A stretch of 64,000 nt of DNA from Nanobdellota archaeon (GTDB lineage Archaea > Nanobdellota > Nanobdellia > Pacearchaeales > GW2011-AR1). The stretch covers positions 23,699 to 87,698 of the forward strand of contig JAQICZ010000043.1 of NCBI GenBank assembly GCA_027858295.1. Direction: 5' to 3'. Every line of letters starts with the position of its first letter. Within the stretch, counting starts at the first letter, position 1. The position numbers and the translations under genes are program-made. Of the stretch, positions 2,658-55,829 are shown piece after piece. The notes beneath the pieces were generated by a model that saw only the letters and a list, made by a program, of their open reading frames with translations, had not been told where the DNA came from and ran no database searches.

Positions 2658-3746
2658 TTAAAAACTTATAGTTAGTTGAGAAGACCTTACGTCCTGGTCT
2701 GCACCATTCCTATAATTAATATTTGTCCCTCTTACTCCCCTATAATTAGTTATAGAGTTCATTAAACCACGAATCCCCCCTTCTTCAATTTTAGCTTTAC
2801 AATTCAAGATTAGCTTGGTTTCTTCATAACCTATTTTACCACCTAAACAATCCTTTGTAACCATTGTGAACTCACCATTAAGCGATATCCTTTCTCCAGA
2901 CTTCCTCCCAGATAAAGATATATATGTACTTTCTTCTTTCTCATCACATAAATCGGTAAAAATAATTACGGGAATTTTTAAGGAAAAACTATTTCCTGAT
3001 TGGACTAACTTAACTTTCTTCCAAACATCCACCTCAATATAGTTGCCTAACTTTTTAGTACTTAATGAAAAACTATAATCTTCTCCGATATTGGAAAACC
3101 TATTTTGAGAGGAACTATTACTTTCACTTCTGACATTAGATGATGAGGACTGACTACTGGAATAACTACGCCTTCTAACTTCTGAGGGATGTCTATCGTA
3201 GTCTAAAGAAAATTTATAAACAAAAAGTCCAGGCCCGCCAGTTCCACCATAACCGCTGGACGAACTTTTTAAATATTCAAAATCACCATTGAGTATCTTT
3301 GGAAGAACTTCTCCGGGATCCATATTCTTAGGATTCATTAAATATCCTTGCCGTCTATACTCAGCATCGTCTGGTAACAAACCGAATTGATTTCTTTTTG
3401 ATTCTGAATAAAAGTCTGACTGACTTCCTAGTTGAGTATCCCACCCAGAGTAATTTTCTTTGTAAGCTTTAACGGTCATACCACTTTCGAAATATTTTAT
3501 TTCGTTAACAAGTATTACTGCTCTGCCATGATAATCTGTTTTGATTACTGCTACTTGGCTTCTTCCATCAAGCAACTCAATTATTACTCCTTCTAATGGA
3601 CGATTGTTATATTGATCCTCTACCTCGAAAACTAATGCCCAACTTGTTCCGTAATCAATTCTCCCCATAATACTATAATTACGTTGAGAGAATGCACTTG
3701 TTGCAAATAATGCAACCAAACTGAATAATACAATTGATTTTTTCAT
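2658..3746 (-). CDS. hypothetical secreted protein with Ser-rich linker
   Basis: 362 aa; signal peptide MKKSIVLFSLVALFATSAFSQ; low-complexity SYSSSQSSSSNVRSESNSSSQ segment. Confidence 0.6.
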   Translation of the reverse strand: MKKSIVLFSLVALFATSAFSQRNYSIMGRIDYGTSWALVFEVEDQYNNRPLEGVIIELLDGRSQVAVIKTDYHGRAVILVNEIKYFESGMTVKAYKENYSGWDTQLGSQSDFYSESKRNQFGLLPDDAEYRRQGYLMNPKNMDPGEVLPKILNGDFEYLKSSSSGYGGTGGPGLFVYKFSLDYDRHPSEVRRRSYSSSQSSSSNVRSESNSSSQNRFSNIGEDYSFSLSTKKLGNYIEVDVWKKVKLVQSGNSFSLKIPVIIFTDLCDEKEESTYISLSGRKSGERISLNGEFTMVTKDCLGGKIGYEETKLILNCKAKIEEGGIRGLMNSITNYRGVRGTNINYRNGADQDVRSSQLTISF

Positions 3747-3810
3747 AATGTTGAAATTTAAAGATTAAATTCAATCCTCTTTTTTATTTATTTTAAGTTC
3801 AATCACTATT

Positions 3811-5948: not shown

Positions 5949-6764
5949 TTAAACTGCAATTGGACCCTTTATGTTCGGATGGGCAATATAATCTACCAAT
6001 TCAAAATCTTCAAATTTAAAGTCGAATATTGATTTGATAGATGGATTTATTTTCATCATTGGAAGTGGATATGGCTCTCTTGATAATTGCAAAGTCACTT
6101 GCTCGATATGATTTGAATAAATATGGGTATCACCTAAGGTGTGAACGAATTCACCTAATTCTAAATTACAAACTTGCGCCATCATCATTGTTAGTAGCGC
6201 ATATGAAGCAATATTGAATGGCACACCTAAAAAAGTATCGGCAGACCTCTGATAAAGCAGACATGAAAGTTTTCCATTTGCGACATAGAACTGGAAGAAT
6301 GCATGACAAGGTGGCAGATTCATATTCGGAATATCTGCAACATTCCAAGCACTTACAATTATTCTTCGCGAGTCGGGATTTACCTTAATTGTATTTACAG
6401 CCTCTTTTATTTGGTCTATACTCCCTCCTTGGTAATCTGGCCAGCTTCTCCACTGATAACCATAAATATGCCCAAGGTTTCCCTCTCTATCCGCCCATTC
6501 ATTCCAAATTCTTACTCCATTTTCTTGGAGATATTTAACATTTGTATCACCTGCCAAAAACCATAGCAGTTCATAGATTATTGATTTTAGGTGAAGCTTC
6601 TTTGTTGTTACCAATGGAAAACCTTCCCTTAGATCAAAGCGCATTTGGTAACCGAATACCGAAATTGTTCCGGTACCGGTTCTGTCTTCTTTTTGCACAC
6701 CGTTTTTTGAAACGTGCTTTAATAAATCTAGATATTGTCTCATTATGTTCGTTTTAATATTCAT
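5949..6764 (-). CDS. thyA: thymidylate synthase (ThyA type)
   Basis: Full-length ThyA motifs: [64 protein letters not shown]; real start may be the internal MRQYLDLL at 6743. Confidence 0.95.
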
Positions 6765-15208: not shown

Positions 15209-15263
15209 TTACCTCGCAAGCTCAGTATTGATAAGTTGAATTATCCACTGCGTTGGCGGGCAA
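15209..15263 (-). repeat. R1 junction element copy b
   Basis: TTACCTCGCAAGC ... TTGATAAGTTGAATTATCC ... GCGTTGGCGGGCAA; arms are imperfect inverted repeats. Confidence 0.7.
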
Positions 15264-15639
15264 ATATTAGTGGAGAGATCTGGAGCGTCAGGGCATTTAT
15301 CAAATATGTAAAAAATGTATTTTGCCGTCAGAAATATCACAAAGTCTCAACTATTAATTTATTGATTTTATATAGTCTTTTTCCCTTGCTCCTTGTGAGT
15401 CTTTACTTTTACGCCCTAATATCGGGTTTTTCAAGTTTTGATTAGTTTATGTAAATCCATAAGCCCTAAGTGTCAGAATTTATTTTGTAGGTCTTATTCG
15501 ATGTGCAAAATGTTTATTTTTCTGAGTTTTGTCTAAATGTGTATAGAAAAAATGCTCAGACATTATAAACATTATTGTCCTCAATTGGGATTTTTGTCGA
15601 CCTATAGGGCAATTTGGTGTTAATAATTACTGGGAGTGG

Positions 15640-15858
15640 CTCAGTTCTCCAGATAAAATTGAGTTAATCGTTCTGTATAGCCATTCGCCTTGGAATATGG
15701 CTAAGAACCATTTGCCTTGGCTTATGGGAAAACAAAGTAAACTTTGTTTAGCCGAAAATTTCAGACAGGTTAAATCGATCGGTAAACGATTTAACCTGTC
15801 TGAAATTTTGTATCTGGGTTGCATAAACTGTTCCTTTTTGAACAGAGTGGGAGAGGGT
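15640..15858. repeat. M-element copy 1 (about 220 bp, structured)
   Basis: Near-identical to 16659-16871. Contains two CCATTYGCCTTGGNNTATGG motifs (15681-15700, 15708-15727), a 23-bp perfect palindrome (15755-15809) and the hairpin CTGTTC-ctttTT-GAACAG. Confidence 0.85.
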
Positions 15859-16570: not shown

Positions 16571-16658
16571 TGGTTATTATTTTTTTGTTCTTTAGTTAAT
16601 ACTTGTTTGAAATTGATGAGTATCAATTCCCTCTAGGATGACCTCATTGAGATGACAC

Positions 16659-16871
16659 CTCAGTTCTCCAGACAAAATTGAGTTAGTCCTTCTGTATAGC
16701 CATTCGCCTTGGAATATGGCTAAGAACCATTTGCCTTGGCTTATGGGAAAGCAAAGTAAACTTTGTTTAGCCGAAAATTTCAGACAGGTTAAATCTACTG
16801 GTAAACGATTTAACGAAATTTTGTATCTGGGTTGCATAAACTGTTCCTTTTTGAACAGAGTGGGAGAGGGT
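16659..16871. repeat. M-element copy 2
   Basis: Same orientation as copy 1; differs by fewer than 10 substitutions and a 6-nt deletion (ctgtct) that breaks the long palindrome. Confidence 0.85.
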
Positions 16872-17556: not shown

Positions 17557-17597
17557 CTTATTTTAATTATTTGTTTTTGATTAATACTTTGTTTTTA

Positions 17598-17654
17598 TTG
17601 CTTGCCGCGAACCGTTGACGGTTGACTGTCTACAGCTTACGGTTGACGGTTGGC
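17598..17654 (-). repeat. R3 junction element copy a (TTGACGG heptamers)
   Basis: attgcttgccgcgaaccgttgacggttgactgtctacagcttacggttgacggttggc, about 42 nt upstream of the ATG at 17556; contains the palindrome AACCGT-TG-ACGGTT. Confidence 0.85.
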
Positions 17655-19098: not shown

Positions 19099-19143
19099 TT
19101 GTTTATTCTTTAAATTAATAATTGTGTTTTATTTTTATTTTGA

Positions 19144-19201
19144 ATTGCTTGCCGCGAACCGTTGACGGTTGGCTGTCTACAGCTTACGGTTGACGGTTGG
19201 C
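19144..19201 (-). repeat. R3 junction element copy b
   Basis: All but one position identical to copy a; about 46 nt upstream of the ATG at 19098. Confidence 0.85.
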
Positions 19202-20839: not shown

Positions 20840-20895
20840 TTCCCTCGCAAACTCGTGGATTTGATAAATTTTATTATTCGCTGCGCTGCGGGCAA
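20840..20895 (-). repeat. R1 junction element copy d
   Basis: TTCCCTCGCAA ... TTGATAAATTTTATTATTCGCTGCG ... CTGCGGGCAA, then AGCTACT; about 48 nt upstream of the ATG at 20792. Confidence 0.7.
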
Positions 20896-21024
20896 AGATT
20901 ATAGCTACTTTTTATGGGAGTCCTGAGATTCTCTTTGTGGACACTGTGATTACTACTGTCTTAGGATCTCTTTTGTAAAGGTTTGACAGTTCATCTGATT
21001 TTAAATAAAATATAATAGTTCCTC

Positions 21025-23042: not shown

Positions 23043-23204
23043 TTATACAAGGAGGCTGTTAATTGTGCCCAAATCTTCTTTGCAATCTTTATTTGTAGAA
23101 CAAGCCCTTAGCTCTGAACTGCTCATTTTCCGGTAATTTCTACGATGATTTTGATTTGAACCTTCGCCACCAGACTTTTTGTTGTTATTGTTTCTTTTTG
23201 ACAT
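23043..23204 (-). CDS. hypothetical small polar/basic protein
   Basis: Track start is TTG; ATG at 23204 gives MSKRNNNNKKSGGEGSNQNHRRNY..., similar in composition to the QGGNG N-terminal family. Confidence 0.4.
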   Translation of the reverse strand: MSKRNNNNKKSGGEGSNQNHRRNYRKMSSSELRACSTNKDCKEDLGTINSLLV

Positions 23205-33516: not shown

Positions 33517-33544
33517 AATCTGTTTTTATTATTATTAATTTTTG

Positions 33545-33626
33545 TTCGCCGTCCGCTCAAGGATTGATAGGTTTAGTTATCGCTCCGGGCGGGGGTGAAT
33601 ATTGTGCTACTGTTTAAAATAGATTG
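33545..33626 (-). repeat. R1 junction element copy g (with TATA-like box)
   Basis: TTCGCCGTCCGCTCAAGGATTGATAGGTTTAGTTATCGCTCCGGGCGGGGGTGAA, then GTGCTACTGTTTAAAATAGATTG; 29 nt from the ATG at 33516. Confidence 0.85.
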
Positions 33627-34370: not shown

Positions 34371-34424
34371 AATATTAATTTTTTAATTTGTTTTAGAAAT
34401 TATTGTTGTTATCTATAAAATTAC

Positions 34425-34506
34425 TTCTCCCCCCGCTTGAGAATAATAACGTAATGTTATCCCTCAAAGTGCGGGAAAATATTGAGCTACTGTTTTATAA
34501 AGATTG
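34425..34506 (-). repeat. R1 junction element copy h
   Basis: TTCTCCCCCCGCTTGAG...GTTATCCCTCAAAGTGCGGGAAAATATTGAGCTACTGTTTTATAAAGATTG; ends 1 nt before the upstream stop codon (34508-34510). Confidence 0.75.
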
Positions 34507-34507
34507 A

Positions 34508-34873
34508 TTAATGTTTAACTCCACTCTGCCATGCCTTGTATTCTTGATTTCTCTGGTTTTCTTCAGCGCCCCTTTGAAATTGCGCTGTTTGTTCTATAAC
34601 CCACTCTGCATCTTCATATAATTCACTTGGGTATTTTGGACGGTCGGTGAAATATATAGATAATTCATCTTGGGTCATTTCAGCTAAGAATTCTTCGAAT
34701 TCTTGAACTTCCGTCTCGTATTCCTCTTGTAAATTTAGAAAATATTCTGATTGTTTATCTATTGGTTTCTTTCTTAACTCGAAGTCTAGATCAATGTGAC
34801 CTATTATTACTACTCCATTTGCTGAACCGTTTCCACCTTGTGTACTTTGGTTTGAATTATTTGAAATCTTCAT
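34508..34873 (-). CDS. QGGNG-N-terminus family protein 1
   Basis: 121 aa; MKISNNSNQSTQGGNGSANGVVIIGHIDLDFE...; N-terminal module shared with 36462, 38746 and 39128. Confidence 0.6.
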   Translation of the reverse strand: MKISNNSNQSTQGGNGSANGVVIIGHIDLDFELRKKPIDKQSEYFLNLQEEYETEVQEFEEFLAEMTQDELSIYFTDRPKYPSELYEDAEWVIEQTAQFQRGAEENQRNQEYKAWQSGVKH

Positions 34874-35042
34874 AACGTTTATTTTTACTTATGTTAAAAA
34901 ACCAACCCTCCTCAAAAATTAATAAGTTAGGCTGATGAATAGATCTTATTATTAGTTCATATAAATGCCGAAATAAAAATTTATTCCTTTTTTCATAACA
35001 TTTAAACTTTAGTTGATTTTTGAACTTTCTTTACTTAATTAC

Positions 35043-35112
35043 TTCGCCGTCCGCTCAAGAATTGACAGGTTTAGTTATCGCTCCGGTGCGTGCAGGTTTT
35101 GATTACTTCACC
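35043..35112 (-). repeat. R1 junction element copy i
   Basis: TTCGCCGTCCGCTCAAGAATTGACAGGTTTAGTTATCGCTCCGGTGCGTGCAGGTTTTGATTACT. Confidence 0.85.
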
Positions 35113-35187
35113 TAATTTATTGCTTGCGCAGCCTCTTGAGTAATTTAAAGAACGCTGAGGATTTGAGTTATTTTATGTTATTTCTAA

Positions 35188-35577
35188 TTAAAGATATTGG
35201 AGTTGTTTAAAGAGTTCCTCAACTTCCATTATTTCATCATCTTCAAACATTAGGGGCCATTCTTTACGAAGGTTATCGCCGGTTTTTAATTTGCCGTCTT
35301 TTCCTGTGAATTCCCAGGTGTGCCTTACAATAAAAAGGGCGTCCTTAATCATGACCTTTGCCATTAGGTGTCCTTTATTCTTAAACAATCCTTTTTCCTG
35401 TAATTCTTTAACAAAGAATAAGAAATCGACTTCTGCTAGAACAAATTGAGAAACATCGCGGTTTTTGAACATATTATTCAATCCTTCAATGTAGTTTTCA
35501 GCAATTGTTACCAGCTCTTTCATTTTGTCAGTACCACTTCTTTGTACTAATTCTTTAAGTTGTTGAATTTTGTTCAT
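35188..35577 (-). CDS. hypothetical protein
   Basis: 129-aa ORF, ATG start. Confidence 0.5.
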   Translation of the reverse strand: MNKIQQLKELVQRSGTDKMKELVTIAENYIEGLNNMFKNRDVSQFVLAEVDFLFFVKELQEKGLFKNKGHLMAKVMIKDALFIVRHTWEFTGKDGKLKTGDNLRKEWPLMFEDDEIMEVEELFKQLQYL

Positions 35578-35610
35578 GCTGTCCTTTTTTTATAATTAAT
35601 ACTTATTAGC

Positions 35611-35687
35611 TTCTAAGAGAAATTGATAGCTTTAGTTATCGCTTCTGGGCGGGGGGTGAAGATTGTGCTACTATTTTAAATAGATTG
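35611..35687 (-). repeat. R1 junction element copy j (left arm degenerate)
   Basis: AATTGATAGCTTTAGTTATCGCTTCTGGGCGGGGGGTGAAGATTGTGCTACTATTTTAAATAGATTG. Confidence 0.8.
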
Positions 35688-35707
35688 AATACTATTATTT
35701 ATTAATT

Positions 35708-36322
35708 CTAATAATAGTCTAATAATACTTCCTCAATTCTCATTGACAACTTTTTTGCTTCTTCGGACATATAAATCCTTTTGTTTTTTGATAGCAATAA
35801 TTTACTTATTAAATCTATTCCCTTTCTGGTTCCGAGTACCCCTTCTTCATGTGATTGGTATGAACTATACTCCCCTTCTGGTGTTCTATTAAAAAATGTG
35901 CCTTCTCTATTTAGATACACCCTCACACTACTTTCAGAACGACCTGAAGCCTTAATAACTTTATTCTCCGAATAAAGAATGTCTACCGATTGGTCATCTT
36001 TGTATAAATACAACTCCTGCAGAATTAATTCATCTTTAATTTGTCTCCTGAAGACCAGGTGATCTTTATCATTGATATAAACCTCCCAGTATTCTTCGGG
36101 TCTATTAAGATTATTCAGCTGCTGTTCAAAAAAATTGTTTTCTTTTTTGAGACTACTAATTGTCTCTTTGGTTCTCGAATTAATTGAAGTATTTTCCAAC
36201 TCCAATCTTTTCACTGTTGTTTTATATTCACTTACCTGCTTTTCTAATGAAGCAAGTTTTTCTTTATTGCAACTGGTGAGAGTTACTAATAAGATTGCTA
36301 TGGTTACTAATATTGTTTTCAT
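35708..36322 (-). CDS. putative lipoprotein with coiled-coil region
   Basis: 204 aa; MKTILVTIAILLVTLTSC (lipobox-like LTSC). Confidence 0.55.
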   Translation of the reverse strand: MKTILVTIAILLVTLTSCNKEKLASLEKQVSEYKTTVKRLELENTSINSRTKETISSLKKENNFFEQQLNNLNRPEEYWEVYINDKDHLVFRRQIKDELILQELYLYKDDQSVDILYSENKVIKASGRSESSVRVYLNREGTFFNRTPEGEYSSYQSHEEGVLGTRKGIDLISKLLLSKNKRIYMSEEAKKLSMRIEEVLLDYY

Positions 36323-36371
36323 CTTTTTTAATTTTGTGCATTATAATTATTTAGTTAACTTTAAAACATTG

Positions 36372-36450
36372 TTAGCCGTCCGCTCAAAAATTGATAGGTT
36401 TAGTTATCGCTCCGGGCGGGGGTGAAGATTGGATTGCTGCTTGTAAATAT
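36372..36450 (-). repeat. R1 junction element copy k
   Basis: TTAGCCGTCCGCTCAAAAATTGATAGGTTTAGTTATCGCTCCGGGCGGGGGTGAAGATTGG. Confidence 0.85.
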
Positions 36451-36461
36451 TTAAGTGTTGG

Positions 36462-36776
36462 TTAAAATATTAGGTGAAATAATCCAAAATTCATTAGTAC
36501 TGAATAGAGTAAATAAATTAGGATTTGTATTAAATTTATTTTTTTACATTGCAGACAGATGAACAATCCGACTAGAAGGATATTGAAGATTACTCCTATT
36601 AACGGGACCACCCAAGATTCCCAACCATAATCCATTTGACTAACTGATTCTGCTCCCATTGCAAGTACAGAGATTAACATCATTGCCGCAAAAGCTTCCC
36701 AACTTATTTTATGGGCCTTGCTTTTAGAACCATTTCCACCTTGTGGGTTTTGGTTTGTTGTTGAATTTTTGTTCAT
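36462..36776 (-). CDS. QGGNG-N-terminus family protein 2 (membrane)
   Basis: 104 aa; MNKNSTTNQNPQGGNGSKSK followed by hydrophobic helices. Confidence 0.55.
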   Translation of the reverse strand: MNKNSTTNQNPQGGNGSKSKAHKISWEAFAAMMLISVLAMGAESVSQMDYGWESWVVPLIGVIFNILLVGLFICLQCKKINLIQILIYLLYSVLMNFGLFHLIF

Positions 36777-36806
36777 TTTGTTTTATTTTATTATTATCAA
36801 TTTTTC

Positions 36807-36872
36807 TTCGCCGTCCGTTCATAATTGATAGGTTTAGTTATCGCTCGCTGTGCGTGCAGGTTTTGATTACTG
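36807..36872 (-). repeat. R1 junction element copy l
   Basis: TTCGCCGTCCGTTCATAATTGATAGGTTTAGTTATCGCTCGCTGTGCGTGCAGGTTTTGATTACT; 31 nt from the ATG at 36776. Confidence 0.85.
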
Positions 36873-37220
36873 GTTTACAGGTAAAGACTCTTTTCTCTTA
36901 TCTTCTTTGTTCCATTCTATCCAGTTTTTGATATTGATTCCGAAAATTAGAATTGAGAACATTATTATAACATATGATTCCATCATATATCCCATACCTA
37001 GATTGGCGATTATGCCGATACCATAAAAAACAAATGCTACTTTCTTCTTTTTTTTCAAAAGTATTTGTGTGGATAAAATAAAGAATATACTTACAAAGTC
37101 TAGAAAGTGGAATTGGGAAATTTTTTCTTTATGAATCCCTGGAAGAATTTCGAGATAAGCTAAAATGAGTGCAAATGCTACAAAGAGCGTACTTAAGATT
37201 ATTGCTTTTTTCATAATCAT
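36867..37220 (-). CDS. hypothetical multi-pass membrane protein
   Basis: 117 aa; 3-4 TM helices. Confidence 0.55.
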   Translation of the reverse strand: MIMKKAIILSTLFVAFALILAYLEILPGIHKEKISQFHFLDFVSIFFILSTQILLKKKKKVAFVFYGIGIIANLGMGYMMESYVIIMFSILIFGINIKNWIEWNKEDKRKESLPVNQ

Positions 37221-37262
37221 AAATTTTAGAAATTGTTATTATATTATTAACTGTAAAAATAC

Positions 37263-38672
37263 TTATTTATTTATTACATAGGGGCTATTAAGAGCTGTTA
37301 ATTCCCACTGAACTGCATATGGTGTCCATCTTCCAAGGTGAGGATTTTCTGGATGAACTATGCCTGGAGTTTCAGTAACCCTCATTAATTGAGGAATCAC
37401 TTCTTTTGAAATCATCATTGTATTGATTGAAGTATAGAATTTGTAAACTCCATCCTGAGGACCGAAATCCAATACACTTTCAATTTGATGAAGGTTAGGA
37501 TGCGTTTCTTCCACTTTTGGGAAGATCTGTTCATCCTCTGAAAAAAGCACATGAATAAACGCTTCATCTTCTGTGTGTACAAACTCGGTTTGACGTTCTT
37601 TCAGGGTGCTATTTTCTATTTGCGTTTTTAATTCACGTTCTGGTATAACGTGGTAAACAGCACCATCACTTGAATAGATACAGAGAACTTTTGGAATTGC
37701 ATTTTCCCCTAATAATACATTCTCTGCATCAACATCATCTTCGAAGGAGTCCATACTAGAATCATTCAAACAATTGAGGATTATTGGATAAGACTTTACT
37801 GGCATACTTTTCTTATAATACCAATCTTCGTCTCTACTGACATCCTTATCCTTTCTTTTTCCTTTCTTGTTTGATTTAATACTGGCCTCTTTTGATTTTA
37901 ACTCCCTTATCCTCTTTTTGATTACAGGAATTTCTCTCTCCATATATTTATTATGGTAGTGGATGAAATCACCTGCGCGTTCTATGCAATAGAGTAAACG
38001 TTCTATTTCTTTACCGACTTCTTCATCATTAAGAAATTCACTAGATAATTCTTTCAACTTTGATAAATCATTAAGCCTCCAGTTAAATTCTATTAGACTA
38101 GACCTTTCTCTTTTTGCAACCTTTTGCATTCCAAGAATTCTTGTTTCCAATTCCAGAAGTTCCTCCTTAACCCTTGTTTGTTCGGGAGATACAATTCCCT
38201 CTGATTTCAAAACAAATCGGCCCCACCTTTGTTGCGGATTACGAAAGAAGTGATTATACCTTTCTCTATTCTTTCTCATTGAACCTCTTTTATTTAACCG
38301 AGAGATTGCTTCTGCTGAGGGGTTGCCTAAATTAATATTTGTTTCGGTTAATACTCCATCTATTCGTCTCCTGTCGCCTACTTGATATCCATAGGAGAAT
38401 TTTGAATCGGAAACGTTAGCATGTCCTAACATCAATTGTTCCAAAAAATCGTCTTCTTTAAACATTACTTCAGATATATACTCTTCGACTTCATCTTTTA
38501 TCTCTAACCACAATTCATTTAATTGTTTTTTCTTCTCAATTTGTGCAACTTTCTTTTTGACTTCTTCATCTGTGCAATCTGGTCCGAATTCTAATTCCTC
38601 GTATGACTGACGGATATCGTCACTGAATGGAGCTGTGAATTGATTCTTTAGTTGATTCATTATATTATTCAT
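37263..38672 (-). CDS. hypothetical protein
   Basis: 469-aa ORF, ATG start; charged coiled-coil-like middle; no family recognised. Confidence 0.6.
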   Translation of the reverse strand: MNNIMNQLKNQFTAPFSDDIRQSYEELEFGPDCTDEEVKKKVAQIEKKKQLNELWLEIKDEVEEYISEVMFKEDDFLEQLMLGHANVSDSKFSYGYQVGDRRRIDGVLTETNINLGNPSAEAISRLNKRGSMRKNRERYNHFFRNPQQRWGRFVLKSEGIVSPEQTRVKEELLELETRILGMQKVAKRERSSLIEFNWRLNDLSKLKELSSEFLNDEEVGKEIERLLYCIERAGDFIHYHNKYMEREIPVIKKRIRELKSKEASIKSNKKGKRKDKDVSRDEDWYYKKSMPVKSYPIILNCLNDSSMDSFEDDVDAENVLLGENAIPKVLCIYSSDGAVYHVIPERELKTQIENSTLKERQTEFVHTEDEAFIHVLFSEDEQIFPKVEETHPNLHQIESVLDFGPQDGVYKFYTSINTMMISKEVIPQLMRVTETPGIVHPENPHLGRWTPYAVQWELTALNSPYVINK

Positions 38673-38745
38673 TTTTTGTTTTTTAGAAATTTACTTTTGC
38701 TTACTGATTTTCCTATTTTGCTTTTATTAAATAAAAGCACAGGAA

Positions 38746-39003
38746 TTAATTTAAATAACCTTTTGGGACACCAAAATAATAAGTGCTAATTTCGTCTTGG
38801 TCCATTTCAAAGAAGAGCTCGTCAAAGGCTTCCTATTGCTCTTTATATTCTTCCTGGAAACTAATTATTCCCTTTATTGTTTTGTCAATTTCCTTAATTG
38901 GTTGTTTTATTAATTCTAAATCAATAAACCCGATTACTTTTACTGGGGGCAACAAACCATTTCCACCTTGTGTACTTTGGTCTTGATTTGAATTTTTGTT
39001 CAT
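38746..39003 (-). pseudogene. QGGNG-N-terminus family member with in-frame TAG
   Basis: MNKNSNQDQSTQGGNGLLPPVKVIGFIDLELIKQ...SFQEEYKEQ, TAG at 38833-38835, then EAFDELFFEMDQDEISTYYFGVPKGYLN. Aligns with QEEYETEVQEFEEFLAEMTQDELSIYF of 34508..34873, with the TAG opposite Gln. Confidence 0.6.
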
Positions 39004-39040
39004 GTTGTTTATGTTATTGTTAATTTATTTAGAATTTTCC

Positions 39041-39107
39041 TTCGCCGTCCGCTCAGGACTGATAAGTTATGTTATCCCTCGCGGTGCGTGCAGAAATTGA
39101 GCTACTT
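39041..39107 (-). repeat. R1 junction element copy m
   Basis: TTCGCCGTCCGCTCAGGACTGATAAGTTATGTTATCCCTCGCGGTGCGTGCAGAAATTGAGCTACT; 38 nt from the ATG at 39003. Confidence 0.85.
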
Positions 39108-39127
39108 AGTTATTGACAACCTTTTTG

Positions 39128-39634
39128 CTATAATTCCCAAGATTCAAGGCCGGTCGCTTCCTCCATGGTATTATAATAATTGGTGTCTACTTCTGCCTTC
39201 TTCCAGTCAAGCAAAAAAGATTCCATATCTGTTTTCTTTTCTTGCAAGAAGAGTTTCAGTGCTTCAATTGGCAAATCTTCCAGATTATTTTTCCAAATCC
39301 AGCCGTGTCTTAAAAATTTACTTTTACCCTTTGCACCATTTATTGTAAAATAGCTGTCCTTTATCCTGCCGAGCCAATGAGTTGAGATGTATATCTTTTC
39401 GTCATCTTCTGAGATGGTCATAACTTTGTCTTTGAATACTTCGGTATATTTGGAATGATCAATTGGCTGCCTGTTATTATAGAAGTCGGCGGTCTTTTCT
39501 TTTAGGATTGGGTGAAGTTCTTCTGACTTTTTGCTTGTTGAATCTAGGTCGATTTTGCCTATTACTTTTACTTTTTTGACTCCATTTTGATTCGCTCTAT
39601 TAATAGAGGTTGAATTTTGATTTGATTTTTTCAT
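39128..39634 (-). CDS. QGGNG-N-terminus family protein 3
   Basis: 168 aa; MKKSNQNSTSINRANQNGVKKVKVIGKIDLDSTSKK... Confidence 0.55.
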   Translation of the reverse strand: MKKSNQNSTSINRANQNGVKKVKVIGKIDLDSTSKKSEELHPILKEKTADFYNNRQPIDHSKYTEVFKDKVMTISEDDEKIYISTHWLGRIKDSYFTINGAKGKSKFLRHGWIWKNNLEDLPIEALKLFLQEKKTDMESFLLDWKKAEVDTNYYNTMEEATGLESWEL

Positions 39635-40202
39635 CCCTTATTGATTTTTTAGAAATTATTACTTATTGTATGTTATTTCAATTATTTCTCATAGATAAAA
39701 CAGAATAAGATAGTTGCAACTAAGTTGTTTTTTGATGAAATACCTTGTGTTTCGTTTTTTTCTTTGGTTATTTCGGGTATTTCAGTGTTGTTTTACTGAA
39801 ATGTCCTTAACCGAAGTTGGAAACTGGGGGTATTTTATCTAAAAATCTTGGTCGATTTTTGGATGTTCAGATGTCTTTAGGTTATTTTTGTCAATAAAGT
39901 AAAGGTTGTTTTATCTGAGGTGTATATTTATGAGTGTGAATGGGATATGCAAACCGTAAACCGTTAACGGCTGACCGGAAGTAAGGGCCAATTGTAGCAA
40001 AAAAATGATTTGTTTTCTTTGCCTGGAATATTTTTAGTTTTTGTGACTATTTAAATTTTGTTGTTTGTTGTACTTTTTTAGTGACACTTTTTGGGTTTAT
40101 TTTTGCGTGTTGGGATCATTAATGAATTAGTTGTTGGTTGTTGGTTGTTAGTTTGGGTTAAGGAACCTAAAAACTAAAGACTAACTACTAAGGACTGACT
40201 AG

Positions 40203-42734
40203 CTACGCTAATCGTATGTACTTCTTCCAGCCCTTGTCTGACTTTACTTCTTCAACTTTGATCAAATTCTTCTCTAGTAGCTTGTTTTTTATCACGTTTC
40301 CTTTTCTGGCTGATAATCCCACAATATCGTATAATGCTACTGTTGCATTTTTATGAGCGGGGTTTTCTTTTAGGAATTTTAATAGTTTCAATTCTTCTTC
40401 TGAAATTTTTAGGGGACTGTTGACGGTTGACGGTTGACAGTTGACCGACAAGGCCGGGCTTGTTTTTGAAACTGACGTTTGATTTTTCATTTCTGGGTTA
40501 CTTGCCACAGGTTCTTCTCTTTTTTCCTCAACAATAGGTCTTTCAGGTATTTCGGACTGTTGACTGTTGATGGTAGGGGTAGATTCTAAATTTGGTGAAA
40601 GAGTCGATAGCTCCCCCAGATTAGTTGGGGCAATCAGTTGATCAGTATTAACAGGAGTTGGTATTTTTATTTCATTGACAGTTGAAGTCTGGGGTTTGAG
40701 AGTTGGGGTAATAATCTTTTCAACACTAGCAGATACTGATTCCTTTATTTTCTTACTTGATTTAAATTGTTGCTCAAAGGCGTGGTTTATTGCTTTCATT
40801 ATATCTGTCGTTGTATAATATTCTTCGTGTAGTCCTTCTTCTAATAACGACTCTATTTGATTTAGCTTCATTCCTTCATTCATCTTTTCGCAGGCAAAGT
40901 AGTATAACACTTCTTGAGCTGGAGTCAAAGAGGGAGTCTCACTAACTACTGGGAAAGAGGGTAGCATTTCTGATGTCGGACTTTTGACATCAGAGCTTGA
41001 GGCCTGAAGCTGGAGGTCTGAAGCTTTGGGTAAGGGATGTTCTGATTGTTCGATACTGCTAATTTCGGGGTTTTCCGGGTCTGTCTCTGTGGATAGCGAT
41101 TCTTCGATTTGTCGATTGTTCGATTGTTCAGAGAAGGGAAGTGTGTAGGTAAAGGACTCTGCCGATTCGATTGGCGGCTGTTCGATTGTCCGATTGTCCG
41201 ATGAGTTTACAGGATTAACTACGTCTTCTACTGATGAGACTACTTCTGAAATTGGGTGGTGATCTTTATCACCTGTTAAGGCGACCATTGGCCTATCCTC
41301 TGGTTCTCTAGTAAATTTTATTTCTTCAATAAATTCTGGGTCTTCCTTTTCCCCTCTGAAACCTTCAACTAAACATTGAGCTCTTACTCTAATATCGTCA
41401 TCTGTAATTTTGCCTTCCCTTAAATCTGTATAAGGAACGCTTACTAAGAAGGGTGTTGTATGCCTTTCTGATAGTTTTATTATTGCCTTCCCTATTGGGA
41501 GTTGTGAAAAACTTTCTTTTGTTTCTCTCATTTGCATTAATGACGAAATTGCTTCAATATCTTGAGGTAACTGCTGCTGGAAGGCTATATGACATGCAGA
41601 GTTTCCAACTACTGTATCTGAAAGTTTTGAGATATGCTGATCTAAACAAATTAATCCTGTTCCATATTCTCTCATCTCTCTATAAATCATATCTGTTACT
41701 GATTCTGCCATAAAGTTTGTAGTTTTTTTCAAGAAAACATTATGAGCCTCGTCTACTAGAATTGCGTGATTGAATCCTGCATCAATTGCATTTGGATTTG
41801 CTTTTTTTAATCTATAAATGTAAGTTAGAACATATTCACAGAAGAATTTCTTTTCAATTGTTGATAGGGAATTTAATTCCAAAACCACTCTCTTATCGAA
41901 GAGGTCTTCAATTGACATTCCTCTTTTTCCATCATAGTTTACAAATTGACCAAAGCTACCGAAGGTTAAGACTGAGGCGATTCTTAATGCTGATTCATAC
42001 CAACCAGTCTCTCTACCTTTTGCTTCTCTACCTTTTGCTTCAAGCATTCTTTTTACGTGTTGCCAATTTGGATAGTGAGTTGCACCTTTGTAAATTCCCC
42101 AAGCCTCGTAAATTTCGTCTAGCGTTTCTAAAAGAATTTTATGAACACCGAAGGACGCTGAGAAACTTTCAGTTAATAAATCACATAATGTATTAATCCA
42201 TTCTTTTGGGTTTACACCTTTTGGTGGTCTGTTAATATTTACTTTGAATAAATTTGAAACCTTGTCATTTCCGACTGTGAAGGTCATTAAGTTTTTGTCG
42301 AGTGAAGTTAATGGTCTAAAACTTGATTTCCAATCGAAGACCAGAAATGGTTTATCTTTTTTTATGAATTCTTTTAGAATATTGATTGCGAATGTTGTTT
42401 TACCTGAACCACTCATACCACTAACACAAACATGTCTTGGCCAATCTTTTTCTCTTAAACCAAAACCATACAAATCCTTGTCTGCGTAGCTTACTTTCGC
42501 TAAAGGGTATTCACCGTCTACAGTTCCTTCTTTAGGTGGCGCCAAAAGAACTTGTTTGTCTAATAATTTGTTCAAATGTTTTTGGTATAAACTAGAAAGG
42601 ATTTGGTGAATCTCATTTTTTTCTTCTAAAGTTGAAGCCACAGAATATCTGAAATATAATTCATCAATTTTTTTACCAAATAATGGTTTTAGCCCAGCCG
42701 CTAATTCTTCTACACTTGTTGCTCTGTACATCAT
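40203..42734 (-). CDS. HerA/FtsK-superfamily (DUF87-like) ATPase with long disordered linker and C-terminal wHTH-like domain
   Basis: 843 aa. Walker A GMSGSGKT (aa 106-113, nt 42396-42419), Walker B AILVDEAH, LICLDQ motif. About 300 aa of S/T/P/E/Q-rich low complexity. C-terminus LKFLKENPAHKNATVALYDIVGLSARKGNVIKNKLLEKNLIKV. ATG overlaps the upstream TGA (ATGA). Confidence 0.75.
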   Translation of the reverse strand: MMYRATSVEELAAGLKPLFGKKIDELYFRYSVASTLEEKNEIHQILSSLYQKHLNKLLDKQVLLAPPKEGTVDGEYPLAKVSYADKDLYGFGLREKDWPRHVCVSGMSGSGKTTFAINILKEFIKKDKPFLVFDWKSSFRPLTSLDKNLMTFTVGNDKVSNLFKVNINRPPKGVNPKEWINTLCDLLTESFSASFGVHKILLETLDEIYEAWGIYKGATHYPNWQHVKRMLEAKGREAKGRETGWYESALRIASVLTFGSFGQFVNYDGKRGMSIEDLFDKRVVLELNSLSTIEKKFFCEYVLTYIYRLKKANPNAIDAGFNHAILVDEAHNVFLKKTTNFMAESVTDMIYREMREYGTGLICLDQHISKLSDTVVGNSACHIAFQQQLPQDIEAISSLMQMRETKESFSQLPIGKAIIKLSERHTTPFLVSVPYTDLREGKITDDDIRVRAQCLVEGFRGEKEDPEFIEEIKFTREPEDRPMVALTGDKDHHPISEVVSSVEDVVNPVNSSDNRTIEQPPIESAESFTYTLPFSEQSNNRQIEESLSTETDPENPEISSIEQSEHPLPKASDLQLQASSSDVKSPTSEMLPSFPVVSETPSLTPAQEVLYYFACEKMNEGMKLNQIESLLEEGLHEEYYTTTDIMKAINHAFEQQFKSSKKIKESVSASVEKIITPTLKPQTSTVNEIKIPTPVNTDQLIAPTNLGELSTLSPNLESTPTINSQQSEIPERPIVEEKREEPVASNPEMKNQTSVSKTSPALSVNCQPSTVNSPLKISEEELKLLKFLKENPAHKNATVALYDIVGLSARKGNVIKNKLLEKNLIKVEEVKSDKGWKKYIRLA
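40419..40449. repeat. four tandem TTGACGG-type heptamers inside the ATPase gene
   Basis: TTGACGG TTGACGG TTGACAG TTGACCG read directly; the same heptamer builds the R3 elements. Confidence 0.8.
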
Positions 42735-44414: not shown

Positions 44415-44456
44415 TTTGAAGAGATAAAACTGCAAAAATGGGGTTGTAAGAAAATA

Positions 44457-44539
44457 TGCAGGTGACAGGGTTTGAACCTGCGTAGACATAAGTCAATGGA
44501 TTTTGAGTCCATCCCGTTTGACCACTCCGGCACACCTGC
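44457..44539 (-). tRNA. tRNA-Leu (anticodon CAA)
   Basis: Hand-folded cloverleaf: acceptor GCAGGTG/CACCTGC plus discriminator A; anticodon stem ATGGA/TCCAT with loop CTCAAAA; long variable arm; T arm GCAGG-TTCAAAC-CCTGT; no encoded CCA. Confidence 0.9.
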
Positions 44540-44634
44540 ATATATTATTACTACAACATATTTCGTTTTTAATAATTTCCATTAGGTCCAATTGTTACCT
44601 TAATTATTATAGAGTTTCTTTAGCTATGATTACT

Positions 44635-44761
44635 GTCAAATTTTTGCTAAGATTCTGCTCTACCACACCCTGGTGGAATTCCATTCGCTTTGGAATATGG
44701 GAAAGCAAAAATTCTTGGGATTTTTTACTTAAAGGGATGTGGCTTCAATTTGAAGACATGT
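44635..44761. repeat. B-element copy 1
   Basis: gtcaaatttttgctaagattctgctctaccacaccctggtggaattCCATTCGCTTTGGAATATGGgaaagcaaaaattcttggga...gaagacatgt; 189 nt upstream of the L18e ATG. Confidence 0.85.
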
Positions 44762-44949
44762 AAGAATAGCCAAAAAACTCTCAAAGCCACTATTTGAGAT
44801 GTATTCCCGAATTTGTAATAATTGGGAGAATGACGCCCAACCAAAAAAATGTCTACCCAAACTTTTATAAACTAAAAAAAATTCAAGTTGATATCCGCAA
44901 GTCACAGGCGTTAGCGGGAAGTTATACTTCTCGTTAGGAAAATACAAAA

Positions 44950-46903: not shown

Positions 46904-47743
46904 CTACCTACCCATTGCGACATCTAATGGCGACTTTATTTTTTTTAATTCTTCTGGAGAAACATGTGTGTAAATTTGTGTTGTTGACAAGTCTGCATGT
47001 CCGAGCAGCTCCTGAATTTTTCTTATATCAACTTCATTCTCTAGCAAGTGAGTCGCGAAAGAATGCCTTAGGGTATGTGTGTGAACTTCCTTTTTTATGC
47101 CTGCCTTGACACCTGCATTCTTTACAACCTTCTGAACATTTCTGTCAGACATTTGTTTTCCATTCCTACCAGAAAACATATAAGTTTCTCCAAACTCTTT
47201 TTGAATCTCTGAATATCTTTTCAATTTTGAAATTAAAAATAATGGAATATTGAAAATTCTATCCTTCTTACCCTTTCCTTGCCTTACATGCCCTATTTTA
47301 TCATCAAAATCTAACTCATTAATTTTTAAATTTGTTATTTCTGATACCCTCATCCCAGTTGCATAGACTAAAGATATCATCATTCTTGATTTTTTATTAT
47401 TTAGAGCCTCTAGCAACGCGAAGATCTCGGCCTTCGTCAAAACAACGGGCAATCTTTTTTCTCTTTTCGGTCTTCTAATATGTGCTGTTGGATCCACTTT
47501 AGTAATACTTGTGTAAGCATATTTTACTGCAGATAAAAACATAATAATTGAGATTGCAGAACGTTCACTCAAATTATCTGCTATGTATAATTTAACATCG
47601 TCCTCGGTAATCTGTTCTGGTTCTTTATTTATATAATCAAGAAGCTGAGAGTTTAATCTTATGTAATTCTTTAAAGTGTGAGCTGAGTTCTTCGCAATTT
47701 TTAGTTCGATTTCAAGTTTTTTTAAGAATTCCTGTTTGTTCAT
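46904..47743 (-). CDS. xerA: XerA/XerC/XerD-family tyrosine recombinase
   Basis: 279 aa; ATGMRVSE (Arg), HTLRHSFATHLL (HxxR), LGHADLSTTQIYTHV (His/Tyr); length typical of archaeal XerA. Confidence 0.85.
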   Translation of the reverse strand: MNKQEFLKKLEIELKIAKNSAHTLKNYIRLNSQLLDYINKEPEQITEDDVKLYIADNLSERSAISIIMFLSAVKYAYTSITKVDPTAHIRRPKREKRLPVVLTKAEIFALLEALNNKKSRMMISLVYATGMRVSEITNLKINELDFDDKIGHVRQGKGKKDRIFNIPLFLISKLKRYSEIQKEFGETYMFSGRNGKQMSDRNVQKVVKNAGVKAGIKKEVHTHTLRHSFATHLLENEVDIRKIQELLGHADLSTTQIYTHVSPEELKKIKSPLDVAMGR

Positions 47744-48672: not shown

Positions 48673-48927
48673 ATGAGTAAAAAATTGTTTGTTGGAAATT
48701 TACCTTTTAGTATGAGAGGAAAAGAATTAAGAGATTTATTTTCGGAATTCGGTGAAATTGAAGATGCTACTGTCATTTTAGACAAAATGAATAGAAACAG
48801 ATCTAAAGGTTTTGGATTTATTGAGTTTGTTAATGATGAAGATGGAGATAAAGCTATCGCGGCTATGAATGAGAAAGAGATTGAGGGGAGACCCTTAACT
48901 GTTAACGAAGCTAAGCCAAGAGAATAG
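48673..48927 (+). CDS. RRM-type RNA-binding protein
   Basis: RNP-2 LFVGNL and RNP-1 KGFGFIEF; 84 aa; ATG preferred over the TTG at 48664. Confidence 0.85.
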   Translation: MSKKLFVGNLPFSMRGKELRDLFSEFGEIEDATVILDKMNRNRSKGFGFIEFVNDEDGDKAIAAMNEKEIEGRPLTVNEAKPRE

Positions 48928-50121: not shown

Positions 50122-50463
50122 ATGGGCAGAGAGGAAAAAATCCAATTGATTGCAGGATTTCTTTTTATTATATTGATCTTGCTTGGGATTGTTTTAGCCC
50201 TTCAGATAAAAACTACAAAAACAACTCAAATTGACATTTCTAAAAATTTGAATTTTGCGTCTGCAAATGTAATAGAAGATTATATGGACAAAGAATTTGC
50301 GTCTAACAATATTAAAGAAGATAGTTATGTTAAAAACAAAATCATTCCTAAAGAGTATTCCTCCTGGGGAAAACATACAAAGTCCATAACATTAGGGCTT
50401 TATTCTGACAACTATGAAGTTAATGTCAAATTTTTGCTAAGATTCTGCTCTGCCACACCCTAG
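50122..50463 (+). CDS. hypothetical N-terminally anchored protein
   Basis: ATG at 50122 gives MGREEKIQLIAGFLFIILILLGIVLALQ; the last 13 codons run into B-element copy 2, so the 3' end is doubtful. Confidence 0.4.
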   Translation: MGREEKIQLIAGFLFIILILLGIVLALQIKTTKTTQIDISKNLNFASANVIEDYMDKEFASNNIKEDSYVKNKIIPKEYSSWGKHTKSITLGLYSDNYEVNVKFLLRFCSATP

Positions 50464-50756
50464 TGGAATTCCATTCGCTTTGGAATATGGGAAAACGAAA
50501 TTCTCAGGCAGATAAAATAATTGGAAAATATTTTATTGGAGAATTTGTTTAAAGGGTGTGGCCTGACGAGCGGAATCTTCGAGACGCAAAAATCATCCAC
50601 TCCCTCTATTTGCGGAAATGGTCGCCCTTCGGGTGCCATAAAACCGAAGGAAGGTATCCACACCCTAGTGGTTTTCCATTCGCTTTGGTGTATGGGAAAG
50701 CAAAAATTCTTGGGAATTTTTACTTAAAGGGATGTGGCTTCGATTTGAAGACATGT
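50425..50756. repeat. B-element copy 2 (with internal duplication/insert)
   Basis: 50425-50497 matches 44635-44707 and 50659-50756 matches 44664-44761; about 160 nt of related modules lie between; two CCATTCGCTTTGG(AA/TG)TATGG motifs (50471-50490, 50676-50695). Confidence 0.85.
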
Positions 50757-50946
50757 GAAAAATCTAGAAGGAGGAAGATATTATATCGTGGAGTATACCT
50801 TTTATGATTATTTTGGAAACAAAAGAGTCTATGAAATTAAAAAATATGTTTTTGGATATGAAGAAGAAATGTTTAAATTTAGAGACATTTCTAAAGGCAT
50901 GACATATTACGATACTTGGAAATATAAAATCCTTCCACAAAAATGA
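50755..50946 (+). CDS. hypothetical small protein
   Basis: GTG starts at 50755 or 50788 (AAGGAGG at 50768-50774); TGA overlaps the ATG of the LysE-type gene; start uncertain. Confidence 0.35.
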   Translation: MKNLEGGRYYIVEYTFYDYFGNKRVYEIKKYVFGYEEEMFKFRDISKGMTYYDTWKYKILPQK

Positions 50947-54974: not shown

Positions 54975-55328
54975 ATGAGTAAAAAATTGTTTATAGGAAA
55001 TTTGGATTTTAAGACAGCTGATAAGGATTTAGAAGATATGTTTTCAGGATATGGAGATATTAATGATTGTGTTATAATTAAGGATCGAGAAACTGGCAGA
55101 TCAAAGGGCTTTGGATTTGTAACTTTTGATGATGATGAAGCGGCTGAGAAAGCGGTTGAGGGATTGAACGAGAAGGAAGTTAGAGGTCGTAAACTTACTG
55201 TTAATATTGCTAAGGAGAGAGAAGAATCGACTCCCAGATTTAATAATAATCCAAGGTTTGAGAGAAGAGAATCTGAACCAGAAGATGAGTATTCGAAATA
55301 TTTTACTACTACGCTTATGAGAGATTAG
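54975..55328 (+). CDS. RRM-type RNA-binding protein with acidic/basic tail
   Basis: LFIGNL (RNP-2), KGFGFVTF (RNP-1); AGGAGG at 54962-54967; the first 8 residues are nearly identical to the 48673 paralog. Confidence 0.85.
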   Translation: MSKKLFIGNLDFKTADKDLEDMFSGYGDINDCVIIKDRETGRSKGFGFVTFDDDEAAEKAVEGLNEKEVRGRKLTVNIAKEREESTPRFNNNPRFERRESEPEDEYSKYFTTTLMRD

Positions 55329-55771
55329 GGGGAATGCCGACTGCTAACAGCAAACGGCTGACCGCTTTATTATTTTTATTTTTTTATTAATATTTTTTTG
55401 TTTGGGCCAATTGGGCTTGTTGAAGAATTTGAGGAGGCCGGGAGGCTTTTTTGGACTGGTGAGAATGCGTTGAATTTTATGTTTCTTGATGGCTGTTTGG
55501 CTTTTCGGGGTGATGATTTGGTGAGTTTTTGATAGTCTAGTTTTTGGGGCAAGGGTTTGGTGAAGTTGCTTACGCACCCGCTGCACTTCGCCCGCCTTCG
55601 GGCAGGGCGAGTTTGCTCTGCTTGGACAGTTAAGGTACAAATACGGGGGCAGAGGTCGTTTGTTGGAGGTTGGTGGTGGGGTTGCTTGTGATTGTTTTTG
55701 TAGAATGCGTTAACTTTGGTTTGTTTTGTAGTAAAGAATTATTAGCTATAATTACTCTGTTTAATCGAGCA

Positions 55772-55829
55772 ATTTATGCACGCACTGCGAGGGATAATTT
55801 AATTTGTTTTAATCTCTGAGCTTGCGAAG
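55772..55829 (+). repeat. R1 element copy n (inverted orientation, outside the island)
   Basis: The reverse complement reads CTTCGCAAGCTCAGAGATTAAAACAAATTAAATTATCCCTCGCAGTGCGTGCATAAAT and aligns with copy m. Confidence 0.75.

Follow-up and report, generated by a model that had tools for sequence, protein, structure and literature searches.

Shared gene heads among small orphan genes at one locus of a DPANN archaeal chromosome

Why should neighboring genes whose products have little else in common begin alike? The question is raised by four small genes, here called A to D, which lie within 5.1 kb on the minus strand of a contig (JAQICZ010000043.1) assigned to a Nanobdellota archaeon; the whole stretch of that contig analyzed here, 64,000 nucleotides (nt) long, is referred to as the window, and positions are those of the window. 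An earlier note on this DNA described the four genes as opening with one conserved module on divergent bodies, pointed to a repeat, R1, upstream of three of them, and proposed that the module is either an N-terminal sorting or assembly tag or an expression module spread by recombination, as in variable surface-protein systems. All four genes are real and co-oriented, with N-termini as quoted there, and they form a locus-restricted orphan family whose shared feature is statistically solid. On balance, they are probably lineage-restricted small genes produced by local duplication and by mosaicism at the 5' end, together with an older 10-residue motif that has been kept for a role at the peptide level. 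The genes, with lengths in amino acids (aa) and open reading frames as ORFs, and the two parts of their module are as follows.

34508..34873, minus strand: gene A, 121 aa; parts 1 and 2, then an acidic body, predicted helical
38746..39003 (span given in the earlier note), minus strand: gene B; in-frame TAG at 38833-38835, intact ORF 38833-39003, 56 aa
39128..39634, minus strand: gene C, 168 aa; degenerate part 1, clear part 2, beta-rich 'domain X', C-terminal helix
36462..36776, minus strand: gene D, 104 aa; the 16 residues of part 1 and no part 2, then an apparent three-helix membrane protein, helices read from the sequence
34823..34873, minus strand: part 1 in A, codons 1-17; repeat family D12, 16-mer match
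38953..39003, minus strand: part 1 in B, codons 1-17; D12, 16-mer match, identity with the D copy 86%
36726..36776, minus strand: part 1 in D, codons 1-17; D12, within the block shared by B and D, 16-mer match
34784..34813, minus strand: part 2 in A, VVIIGHIDLD, codons 21-30
38914..38943, minus strand: part 2 in B, VKVIGFIDLE, codons 21-30
39542..39571, minus strand: part 2 in C, VKVIGKIDLD, codons 22-31

The two parts of the module differ in distribution and in evolutionary behavior. Part 1, the polar sequence M(N/K)K..NQ..Q(S/N)(T/P)QGGNG at codons 1-16, can be made out clearly in A, B, and D and in degenerate form in C. Part 2, V-x-V/I-I-G-x-I-D-L-D/E, occurs in A, B, and C but not in D. 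When the first 35 residues of 89 ORFs were compared all against all (3,916 pairs; mean score 17, standard deviation 5.2), the pairs A-B, B-D, A-D, A-C, and B-C scored 75, 55, 47, 45, and 43, respectively, far above chance, and all five stood among the top nine, which bears out the claim that the four ORFs share an N-terminal module. Among 598 ORFs, only A, B, and C have the pattern IG.I[DE]L in their first 60 residues. At the DNA level, the 16-mer CAAGGTGGAAAYGGTT has exactly three copies, in A, B, and D (0.08 expected; three were reached in 0 of 100 shuffles), and the identity noticed earlier between 34830-34850 and 38960-38980 is real, with a length of 22 nt (repeat family D12). The module alone aligns between A and C at E = 1e-4; with the module removed the two show no similarity (E = 14). 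The ORF at 23043..23204, which had been likened to the family, does have a similar composition, but its DNA alignment to the family is weak and the R1-like sequence upstream of it lies under the nhmmer reporting limit. It was rejected as a fifth member: its scores against A and D were reached by 105 and 189 of 500 shuffles, and those against B and C were marginal (13 and 10 of 500) and owed to A-rich stretches of 10-12 nt, for example TCAAATCAAAAT.

The description of a constant head on divergent bodies is accurate for A, C, and D, whose bodies are unrelated, but A and B have one body type. They are paralogs (E = 7e-20; 46% identity across 83 aa), so the likeness already seen between their bodies is genuine, and the motifs QEEY and EM.QDE.S.Y persist in both. 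The N-terminus of B is real, but the span 38746..39003 crosses an in-frame TAG and only 56 aa are intact; the 28 codons past the TAG still align with A, and the same TAG is present in two independent assemblies. TAG is a normal stop that terminates 16 of the 59 genes of the surrounding island (described below), and on this ground its recoding was ruled out. Because the TAG is in frame and an ordinary stop in the region, B is to all appearance a recently truncated paralog of A.

Nonsynonymous (dN) and synonymous (dS) divergence, for which the earlier note had suggested a comparison of module and bodies, separates the two parts, part 1 being near neutral and part 2 constrained.

A-B, part 1, QSTQGGNG: dN 0, dS 0.22
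A-B, part 1, codons 1-16: dN 0.33, dS 0.36
B-D, part 1, codons 1-16: dN 0.19, dS 0.19
A-B, A-C, and B-C, part 2: dN 0.15-0.30, dS 1.0-1.3 or saturated
A-B, body: dN 0.46, dS saturated

The dS of part 1, 0.19-0.36, is far lower than that of the rest of A and B, which is saturated, and seven of the eight QSTQGGNG codons are identical between A and B, a proportion that in other regions drops to about half of the conserved residues. Since dN about equals dS and dS is low, part 1 looks like a young, nearly neutral block of DNA that arrived by copying or gene conversion. Part 2, based on a dN of 0.15-0.30 against a dS of at least 1, looks like an old motif whose peptide has been kept by purifying selection over unrelated bodies.

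The extent of the shared DNA is clearest between B and D. Their proteins are alike only over the first 16 residues (11 of them identical, E = 5e-6), a stretch that belongs to a contiguous block of ~165 nt that runs from R1 through an A/T-rich spacer and the ATG to codon 16-17, with 127 of 166 positions matching. The coding part of this block is 86% identical and is followed by abrupt divergence, and both flanks match at 57%, about the level of unrelated AT-rich sequence. A second pair of genes on the minus strand, 867-1319 (150 aa) and 2658-3746 (362 aa), has in common ~17 nt ahead of the start as well as codons 1-16, which encode a signal peptide (MKKSI..SLVALFAT); the common block (about 1273-1335 and 3700-3762) covers about 65 nt at 84% identity and the remainder of the genes is unrelated. 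Because this pair shares a 5' block only, mosaic gene heads recur in the island.

The upstream portion of the B-D block is a copy of R1, an ~80-nt unit with an imperfect palindrome. An nhmmer profile identified one strong copy in each of seven successive intergenic spacers from 33.5 to 39.1 kb; the seven share the minus strand and span 5.6 kb.

39037..39116, minus strand: R1 subtype a (CTGCACGCAC...), E = 2e-20; 11 nt past the C stop and 33 nt before the B ATG
36803..36882, minus strand: R1 subtype a, E = 3e-18; overlaps the final 16 nt of a 117-aa gene and lies 26 nt before the D ATG
35039..35119, minus strand: R1 subtype a, E = 1e-19; 165 nt before the A ATG
33541-33624, 34421-34504, 35618-35685 (truncated), and 36369-36448, minus strand: four other R1 copies, E 1.7e-23 to 7e-12

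Five of the seven copies start within about 20 nt of the preceding stop (one overlapping it by 16 nt), the exceptions being 35039-35119 at 68 nt and 33541-33624 at 98 nt past the stop, and six of the seven end 24-50 nt before the following ATG, the exception being the copy ahead of A. As had been stated, R1 lies upstream of three of the four module genes, A, B, and D, and no copy is present upstream of C. As a leader of the family, however, only the subtype qualifies: subtype a, marked by CTGCACGCAC, precedes exactly A, B, and D (three of three, vs none of the four other copies; chance 1 in 35), and R1 as such is not the family's leader because four copies precede genes without the module. Weak copies occur at 15220-15268, 20854-20913, and 55769-55821. 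The last of these, a weak subtype-a copy (E = 3e-6) on the plus strand of the host region, lies between a plus-strand gene and a convergent uvrB and has no downstream gene, so R1 need not act as a 5' leader. The R1 hairpin is more stable than its shuffles in two or three copies only (z = -4.1, -2.2, and -1.65). R1 was rejected as a structured RNA, with a consensus fold of 4 pairs and no covariation, and it has no match in Rfam at the gathering threshold, where the window yields tRNA-Leu only. The element may be operator-like, regulatory, or intercistronic.

Two further observations concern the spacers of this array. The long spacer between R1 and A holds a 14-codon ORF (34952-34996, minus strand; MKKGINFYFGIYMN) followed by a U-rich stretch, which could be a leader peptide or attenuator, or merely inserted sequence. 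A second intergenic repeat with CCGTTGACGG / AACCGTTAACGG palindromes (repeat families D15 and D17; 17562-17654, 19109-19201, 39928-39977, and 55315-55364) has copies in the island as well as in the host region and occupies the spot upstream of C where R1 is missing.

We propose that the head consisting of R1 subtype a, spacer, ATG, and 16 codons (~165 nt) would have been copied or converted between neighboring gene heads, and that it would have supplied A, B, and D with an upstream control region, a start codon, and a polar tail (M-N-K-N-S..NQ..QGGNG) that is predicted to be disordered. Part 2 would have been retained by selection in A, B, and C even though the C body belongs to a different domain family, and it may form a short beta strand by which the different bodies dock onto one another or onto a shared partner. 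We infer the direction and mechanism of the 5' transfers, and likewise the docking role, for which the purifying selection on part 2 is as would be expected. The idea of an expression module spread by recombination thus survives in a local form, consistent with the B-D block, the common R1 subtype, the low dS of part 1, and the second gene pair, but the analogy with variable surface-protein systems does not. A, B, and C begin with polar sequence that contains no hydrophobic stretch, signal peptide, or lipobox; the transmembrane helices of D come only after its module; reading of the sequence revealed no inverted repeats and no homopolymer or slippage tracts in the module; no silent cassettes, invertase, or other switching element were found; and the locus does not vary among four assemblies.

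The module is confined to this locus in the collections searched. Scans of the window and of about 20 kb on its flanks revealed neither another module nor another strong R1 copy, and a module-only alignment had no relatives among PDB structures, metagenome contigs, or viral contigs. Genes A and B have no homologs, outside the window's own proteins, in 5.8 billion proteins or 1.84 billion representatives. R1 had 0 matches in 185,579 species genomes, and its 20 single matches in IMG/VR are unsupported by the R1 profile (best E-value 0.003). The earlier note had held that confinement to the locus together with neutral evolution would indicate recent local duplication only; confinement is what we observed, but near-neutral evolution applies to part 1 and not to part 2, which is constrained.

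Several points weigh against the reading of 5' mosaicism with a retained motif. Genes A to D are known from sequence alone. All contigs recovered belong to one strain, so no comparison among populations or orthologues is possible, and each dN/dS estimate draws on 8-16 codons and has a wide error. The low dS of part 1 could reflect a function at the nucleotide level instead of youth. In the AlphaFold2 models of A and C the module has a predicted local distance difference test score (pLDDT) below 50, that is, predicted disorder, which is neutral with respect to a docking strand. An exhaustive HMMER search of large protein libraries with the full-length family profile found no relatives of the module, at a threshold under which short module-only relatives would fall. 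The metagenome collection seems to lack the source samples, and because the window's own genes were not recovered from it, absence there is weak evidence.

Among the alternatives, the N-terminal sorting or assembly tag would have helical soluble, beta-domain, and membrane cargo addressed to one island machine, either a HerA/VirB4/CedD-like ATPase or a filament or particle built by strand addition. It would account for peptide-level selection on part 2 over unrelated bodies, the locus lies 570 nt downstream of a DNA-translocase-like ATPase gene, and secreted and membrane proteins are abundant in the island. Alternation of the type V-x-V-x-G-x-I-x-L with a central glycine is typical of donor or edge strands and would favor a tag. 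Against this, D carries part 1 alone, the portion that looks neutral; the carriers number only three or four, all within 5 kb, with none elsewhere in the collections searched; and scans of the island proteins revealed no recognizable secretion components except a generic P-loop ATPase. Structural support is also lacking from AlphaFold2 and Foldseek. The model of A (mean pLDDT 57.6; residues 1-38 below 50) is helical, with helices at residues 40-65, 68-76, and 83-118, and that of C (mean pLDDT 56; about 68-86 across residues 51-90) is beta-rich; both are of low confidence, and Foldseek gave no match in the PDB at E <= 0.001. Sequence profiles searched against the PDB gave either no match or only the double-stranded RNA-binding domain (dsRBD) of relatives of C. 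We therefore consider a tag unlikely. Its boldest form, in which the ~31-residue module, and part 2 especially, would be a DPANN recognition tag by which an island machine (the CedD/VirB4/HerA-like ATPase being the candidate) recruits small proteins for export, transfer to the host, or co-assembly, and R1 plus part 1 would be a portable expression head for new genes, appears quite improbable.

A nucleic-acid element at the start of the genes is similarly doubtful. The first ~50 nt of possibly leaderless mRNAs, CAAGGTGGAAAYGGTT included, would act as an initiation enhancer, an antisense target, or an extension of an operator with R1, and the peptide would be incidental. This would explain why part 1 is conserved as DNA, synonymous sites included, and why the 16-mer is in all three copies and linked to R1 subtype a; AAGGTGG presumably resembles a Shine-Dalgarno sequence. 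However, the block in A lies 165 nt from R1, a spacing that breaks any fixed geometry between R1 and the coding sequence. Inspection of R1 and the spacers by eye showed no conserved pairing partner, the R1 fold has only 4 pairs and no covariation, and Rfam gave no match. Part 2, where synonymous sites vary, is left unexplained.

It is distinctly unlikely that the module is a historical accident, a residue of recent tandem duplication in which neither peptide nor DNA is functional and some of the ORFs are decaying. The presence of the module at one locus without relatives, the nonsense codon in B, and the near equality of dN and dS in part 1 are all in accord with such a history. Synonymous sites between A and B and between A and C have reached or nearly reached saturation, but part 2 and the body motifs of A and B persist, so the duplicates are old and constrained, and the body family of C is conserved in other organisms.

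The weakest alternative, an archaeal integron-like cassette array with R1 as attC and the shared heads as by-products of recombination, is highly improbable despite the small, orphan, co-oriented ORFs separated by imperfect palindromic repeats mostly 3-22 nt past their stop codons, a tyrosine recombinase 8 kb away, and the reported occurrence of integrons and attC clusters in archaeal metagenome-assembled genomes (MAGs), including those of DPANN (PMC9668308). An attC site is an imperfect hairpin of 57-141 nt whose stem base carries the core sites R'' (RYYYAAC) and R' (GTTRRRY). The palindrome arms of R1 (GATAAC / GTTATC-like), the sole AAC/GTT-type inverted pair in its alignment, are only 5-8 nt apart at the hairpin tip, no RYYYAAC / GTTRRRY pair was seen by eye at the stem base, which is CCGC/GCGG, and the shared block reaches 50 nt into the downstream coding sequence, unlike products of attC recombination. 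An integron would also have, next to the array, an integrase with the additional domain specific to IntI. The recombinase itself (46904-47743), which lies past the tRNA-Leu gene and is oriented like the array, reaches 228 bits against the archaeal XerA model NF040815 (cut-off 220) and falls below the integrase cut-offs (TIGR02249, 198 vs 265 bits; NF011946, 137 vs 435 bits); by these scores it is an archaeal XerA and no integron integrase.

The bodies offer one link beyond this locus. Domain X of gene C, a rare domain at about residues 55-112, has seven relatives, four library proteins (P0004-P0007) and ORFs on three metagenome contigs, all of which carry a dsRBD (PF00035) and none of which carries the module.

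L108, 1964-2551: ORF with domain X and dsRBD
L109, 5869-6471: ORF with domain X and dsRBD
L110, 4306-4899: ORF with domain X and dsRBD

C matches P0004, P0005, and P0006 with library-wide E values of 5e-5 to 1e-4 and four metagenome loci at 38-43% identity; across the family the aligned region reads (Y/F)KDKxMTIS..D..(I/L)Y(I/M)S(S/T)xWxGxIK(D/N)SFFT(I/L).G.KG...HG, at 28-43% identity. P0006 is from a candidate division SR1 MAG, in ordinary chromosomal surroundings. C shares the conserved motif block of this family, but the relatives have other N-termini and place the dsRBD at the C-terminus, whereas C has the module in front and a helix behind. C has no Pfam match, and PDB profile matches cover only the dsRBD columns, which C lacks. 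The domain itself (~60 residues; ..YKDKxMTIS..D..IYISSxWWGxIKNSFFTLxGxKG..HG) is covered by no Pfam or PDB match and is apparently an undescribed domain fused to dsRBDs in SR1/CPR (Candidate Phyla Radiation) and other contigs. Neighboring ORFs on the contigs with domain X resemble, by eye, primase-helicase or NYN-domain genes. Matches of D in Pfam are sub-threshold only, and none of A, C, and D has an above-threshold match in Pfam, NCBIfam, PHROGs, or PADLOC.

The chromosome that carries the locus is archaeal (DPANN, Woesearchaeota-like, from an uncultivated and little-known lineage), because UvrB is 72-74% identical to proteins of Woesearchaeota and Nanoarchaeota MAGs and because genes for archaeal RpoD, S11, S4, S13, L21e, and RpoN lie to the left of the window edge. 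A Bacteroidetes conjugative transposon, or promoters of single-stranded DNA leading regions, had been considered on account of low GC content and starts without a Shine-Dalgarno sequence, and were dropped once UvrB and the flanking genes proved archaeal. Genetic codes 25 and 4, prompted by the SR1 relative and the rarity of TGA, were also rejected: readthrough adds 2-20 codons per TGA-ended ORF and merges no adjacent genes, the coding fraction changes from 0.773 to 0.786, and TGA is a rare yet genuine stop in the region.

Genes A to D are part of an island of ~47 kb of co-oriented, mostly orphan genes that extends from about -3.5 kb to 43.7 kb (its left extension being contig L112, 10436-14330), bounded by the RNA polymerase and ribosomal-protein operon on one side and by tRNA-Leu (44456-44540) on the other. 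Only two of 33 island proteins were recognized in scans with Pfam, PHROGs, NCBIfam, and PADLOC.

5949-6764: thymidylate synthase
40203-42734: HerA/DUF87 ATPase, 843 aa, partial similarity to CedD/CedB/VirB4; its C-terminal tail reads like a winged helix

The homology of the ATPase consists only of generic DUF87 matches at about 24-28% identity; no relative was found in IMG/VR, and defense-system models gave HerA-like similarity and nothing further. The island may be an integrated element; no tRNA-derived 3' repeat (att) marking its far end was found, and the locus has no nucleotide matches to phages or plasmids. Over the locus, identity among the four independent assemblies is 99.97-100%. An assembly from a second sample (L002) fails to align over ~25 nt (37167-37191) inside the membrane-protein gene 36867-37220, which is called there with 99 aa vs 117 aa, the sole structural difference seen between the populations.

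Other repeats were also recorded in the window. A direct repeat of 156 nt with 96% identity (15640-15795 and 16659-16814) lies in duplicated small ORFs that start with MQPRYKIS (15627-15824 and 16592-16837). A dispersed repeat of 91-97% identity (44630-44766, 50420-50500, 50658-50761, and 16513-16600 of contig L114) lies beside tRNA-Leu and recurs 6 kb away and once more farther down the chromosome, and its window copies bracket the genes for XerA, a HAD hydrolase, and a patatin-like protein. Two small paralogs (48673-48927 and 54975-55328) share their N-termini (score 100), the second containing RRM_1; RRM proteins are uncommon in archaea.

If 5' mosaicism with a retained motif is the correct account, orphan genes of a DPANN island obtain promoters, starts, and N-terminal tails by copying the ~165-nt head of a neighboring gene, and one 10-residue motif is held by selection over unrelated bodies. 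This would be of use in the annotation of such islands and would advise caution in interpreting shared N-termini. It opens no major question, and nothing as yet points past ordinary duplication and recombination. A targeting role for the motif would, if true, be far more important; to our knowledge, nothing is known of how DPANN episymbionts address proteins to their hosts.

Among known systems, the vsp and vlp genes of Mycoplasma resemble this locus in that clustered, co-oriented genes share the upstream region, the start, and the first codons as a block of DNA and differ in the remainder. Their N-termini are lipoprotein signal peptides, their bodies are repeat-rich surface antigens, and they switch through invertases or homopolymer tracts, whereas signal peptides are absent from A, B, and C, no switching element occurs in the module, and the four assemblies are invariant. 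Polymorphic toxins of the Rhs/CDI, LXG, and MIX types likewise combine a constant N-terminus with unrelated C-terminal bodies at one locus. The trafficking domains of those proteins have a fold and a length of ~100 aa or more, are widespread and detectable with Pfam, and occur beside secretion-system and immunity genes; the present module, in contrast, is ~31 aa long, is predicted to be disordered, matches nothing in Pfam, NCBIfam, PHROGs, or PADLOC, and was found at this locus only. Integron cassettes (PMC9668308) are similar in consisting of small co-oriented ORFs each followed by an imperfect palindromic repeat, and differ in that R1 does not have the core-site architecture of attC, the recombinase is XerA and not an integrase, and the shared sequence enters the coding regions. 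Repetitive extragenic palindrome (REP)-like repeats and the operator arrays of viruses and plasmids are also comparable: R1 departs from REP-like repeats in its single orientation, its 5.6-kb cluster, its few stable hairpins, and its absence of covariation, and resembles such elements and arrays in being an imperfect palindrome of ~80 nt set in consecutive spacers.

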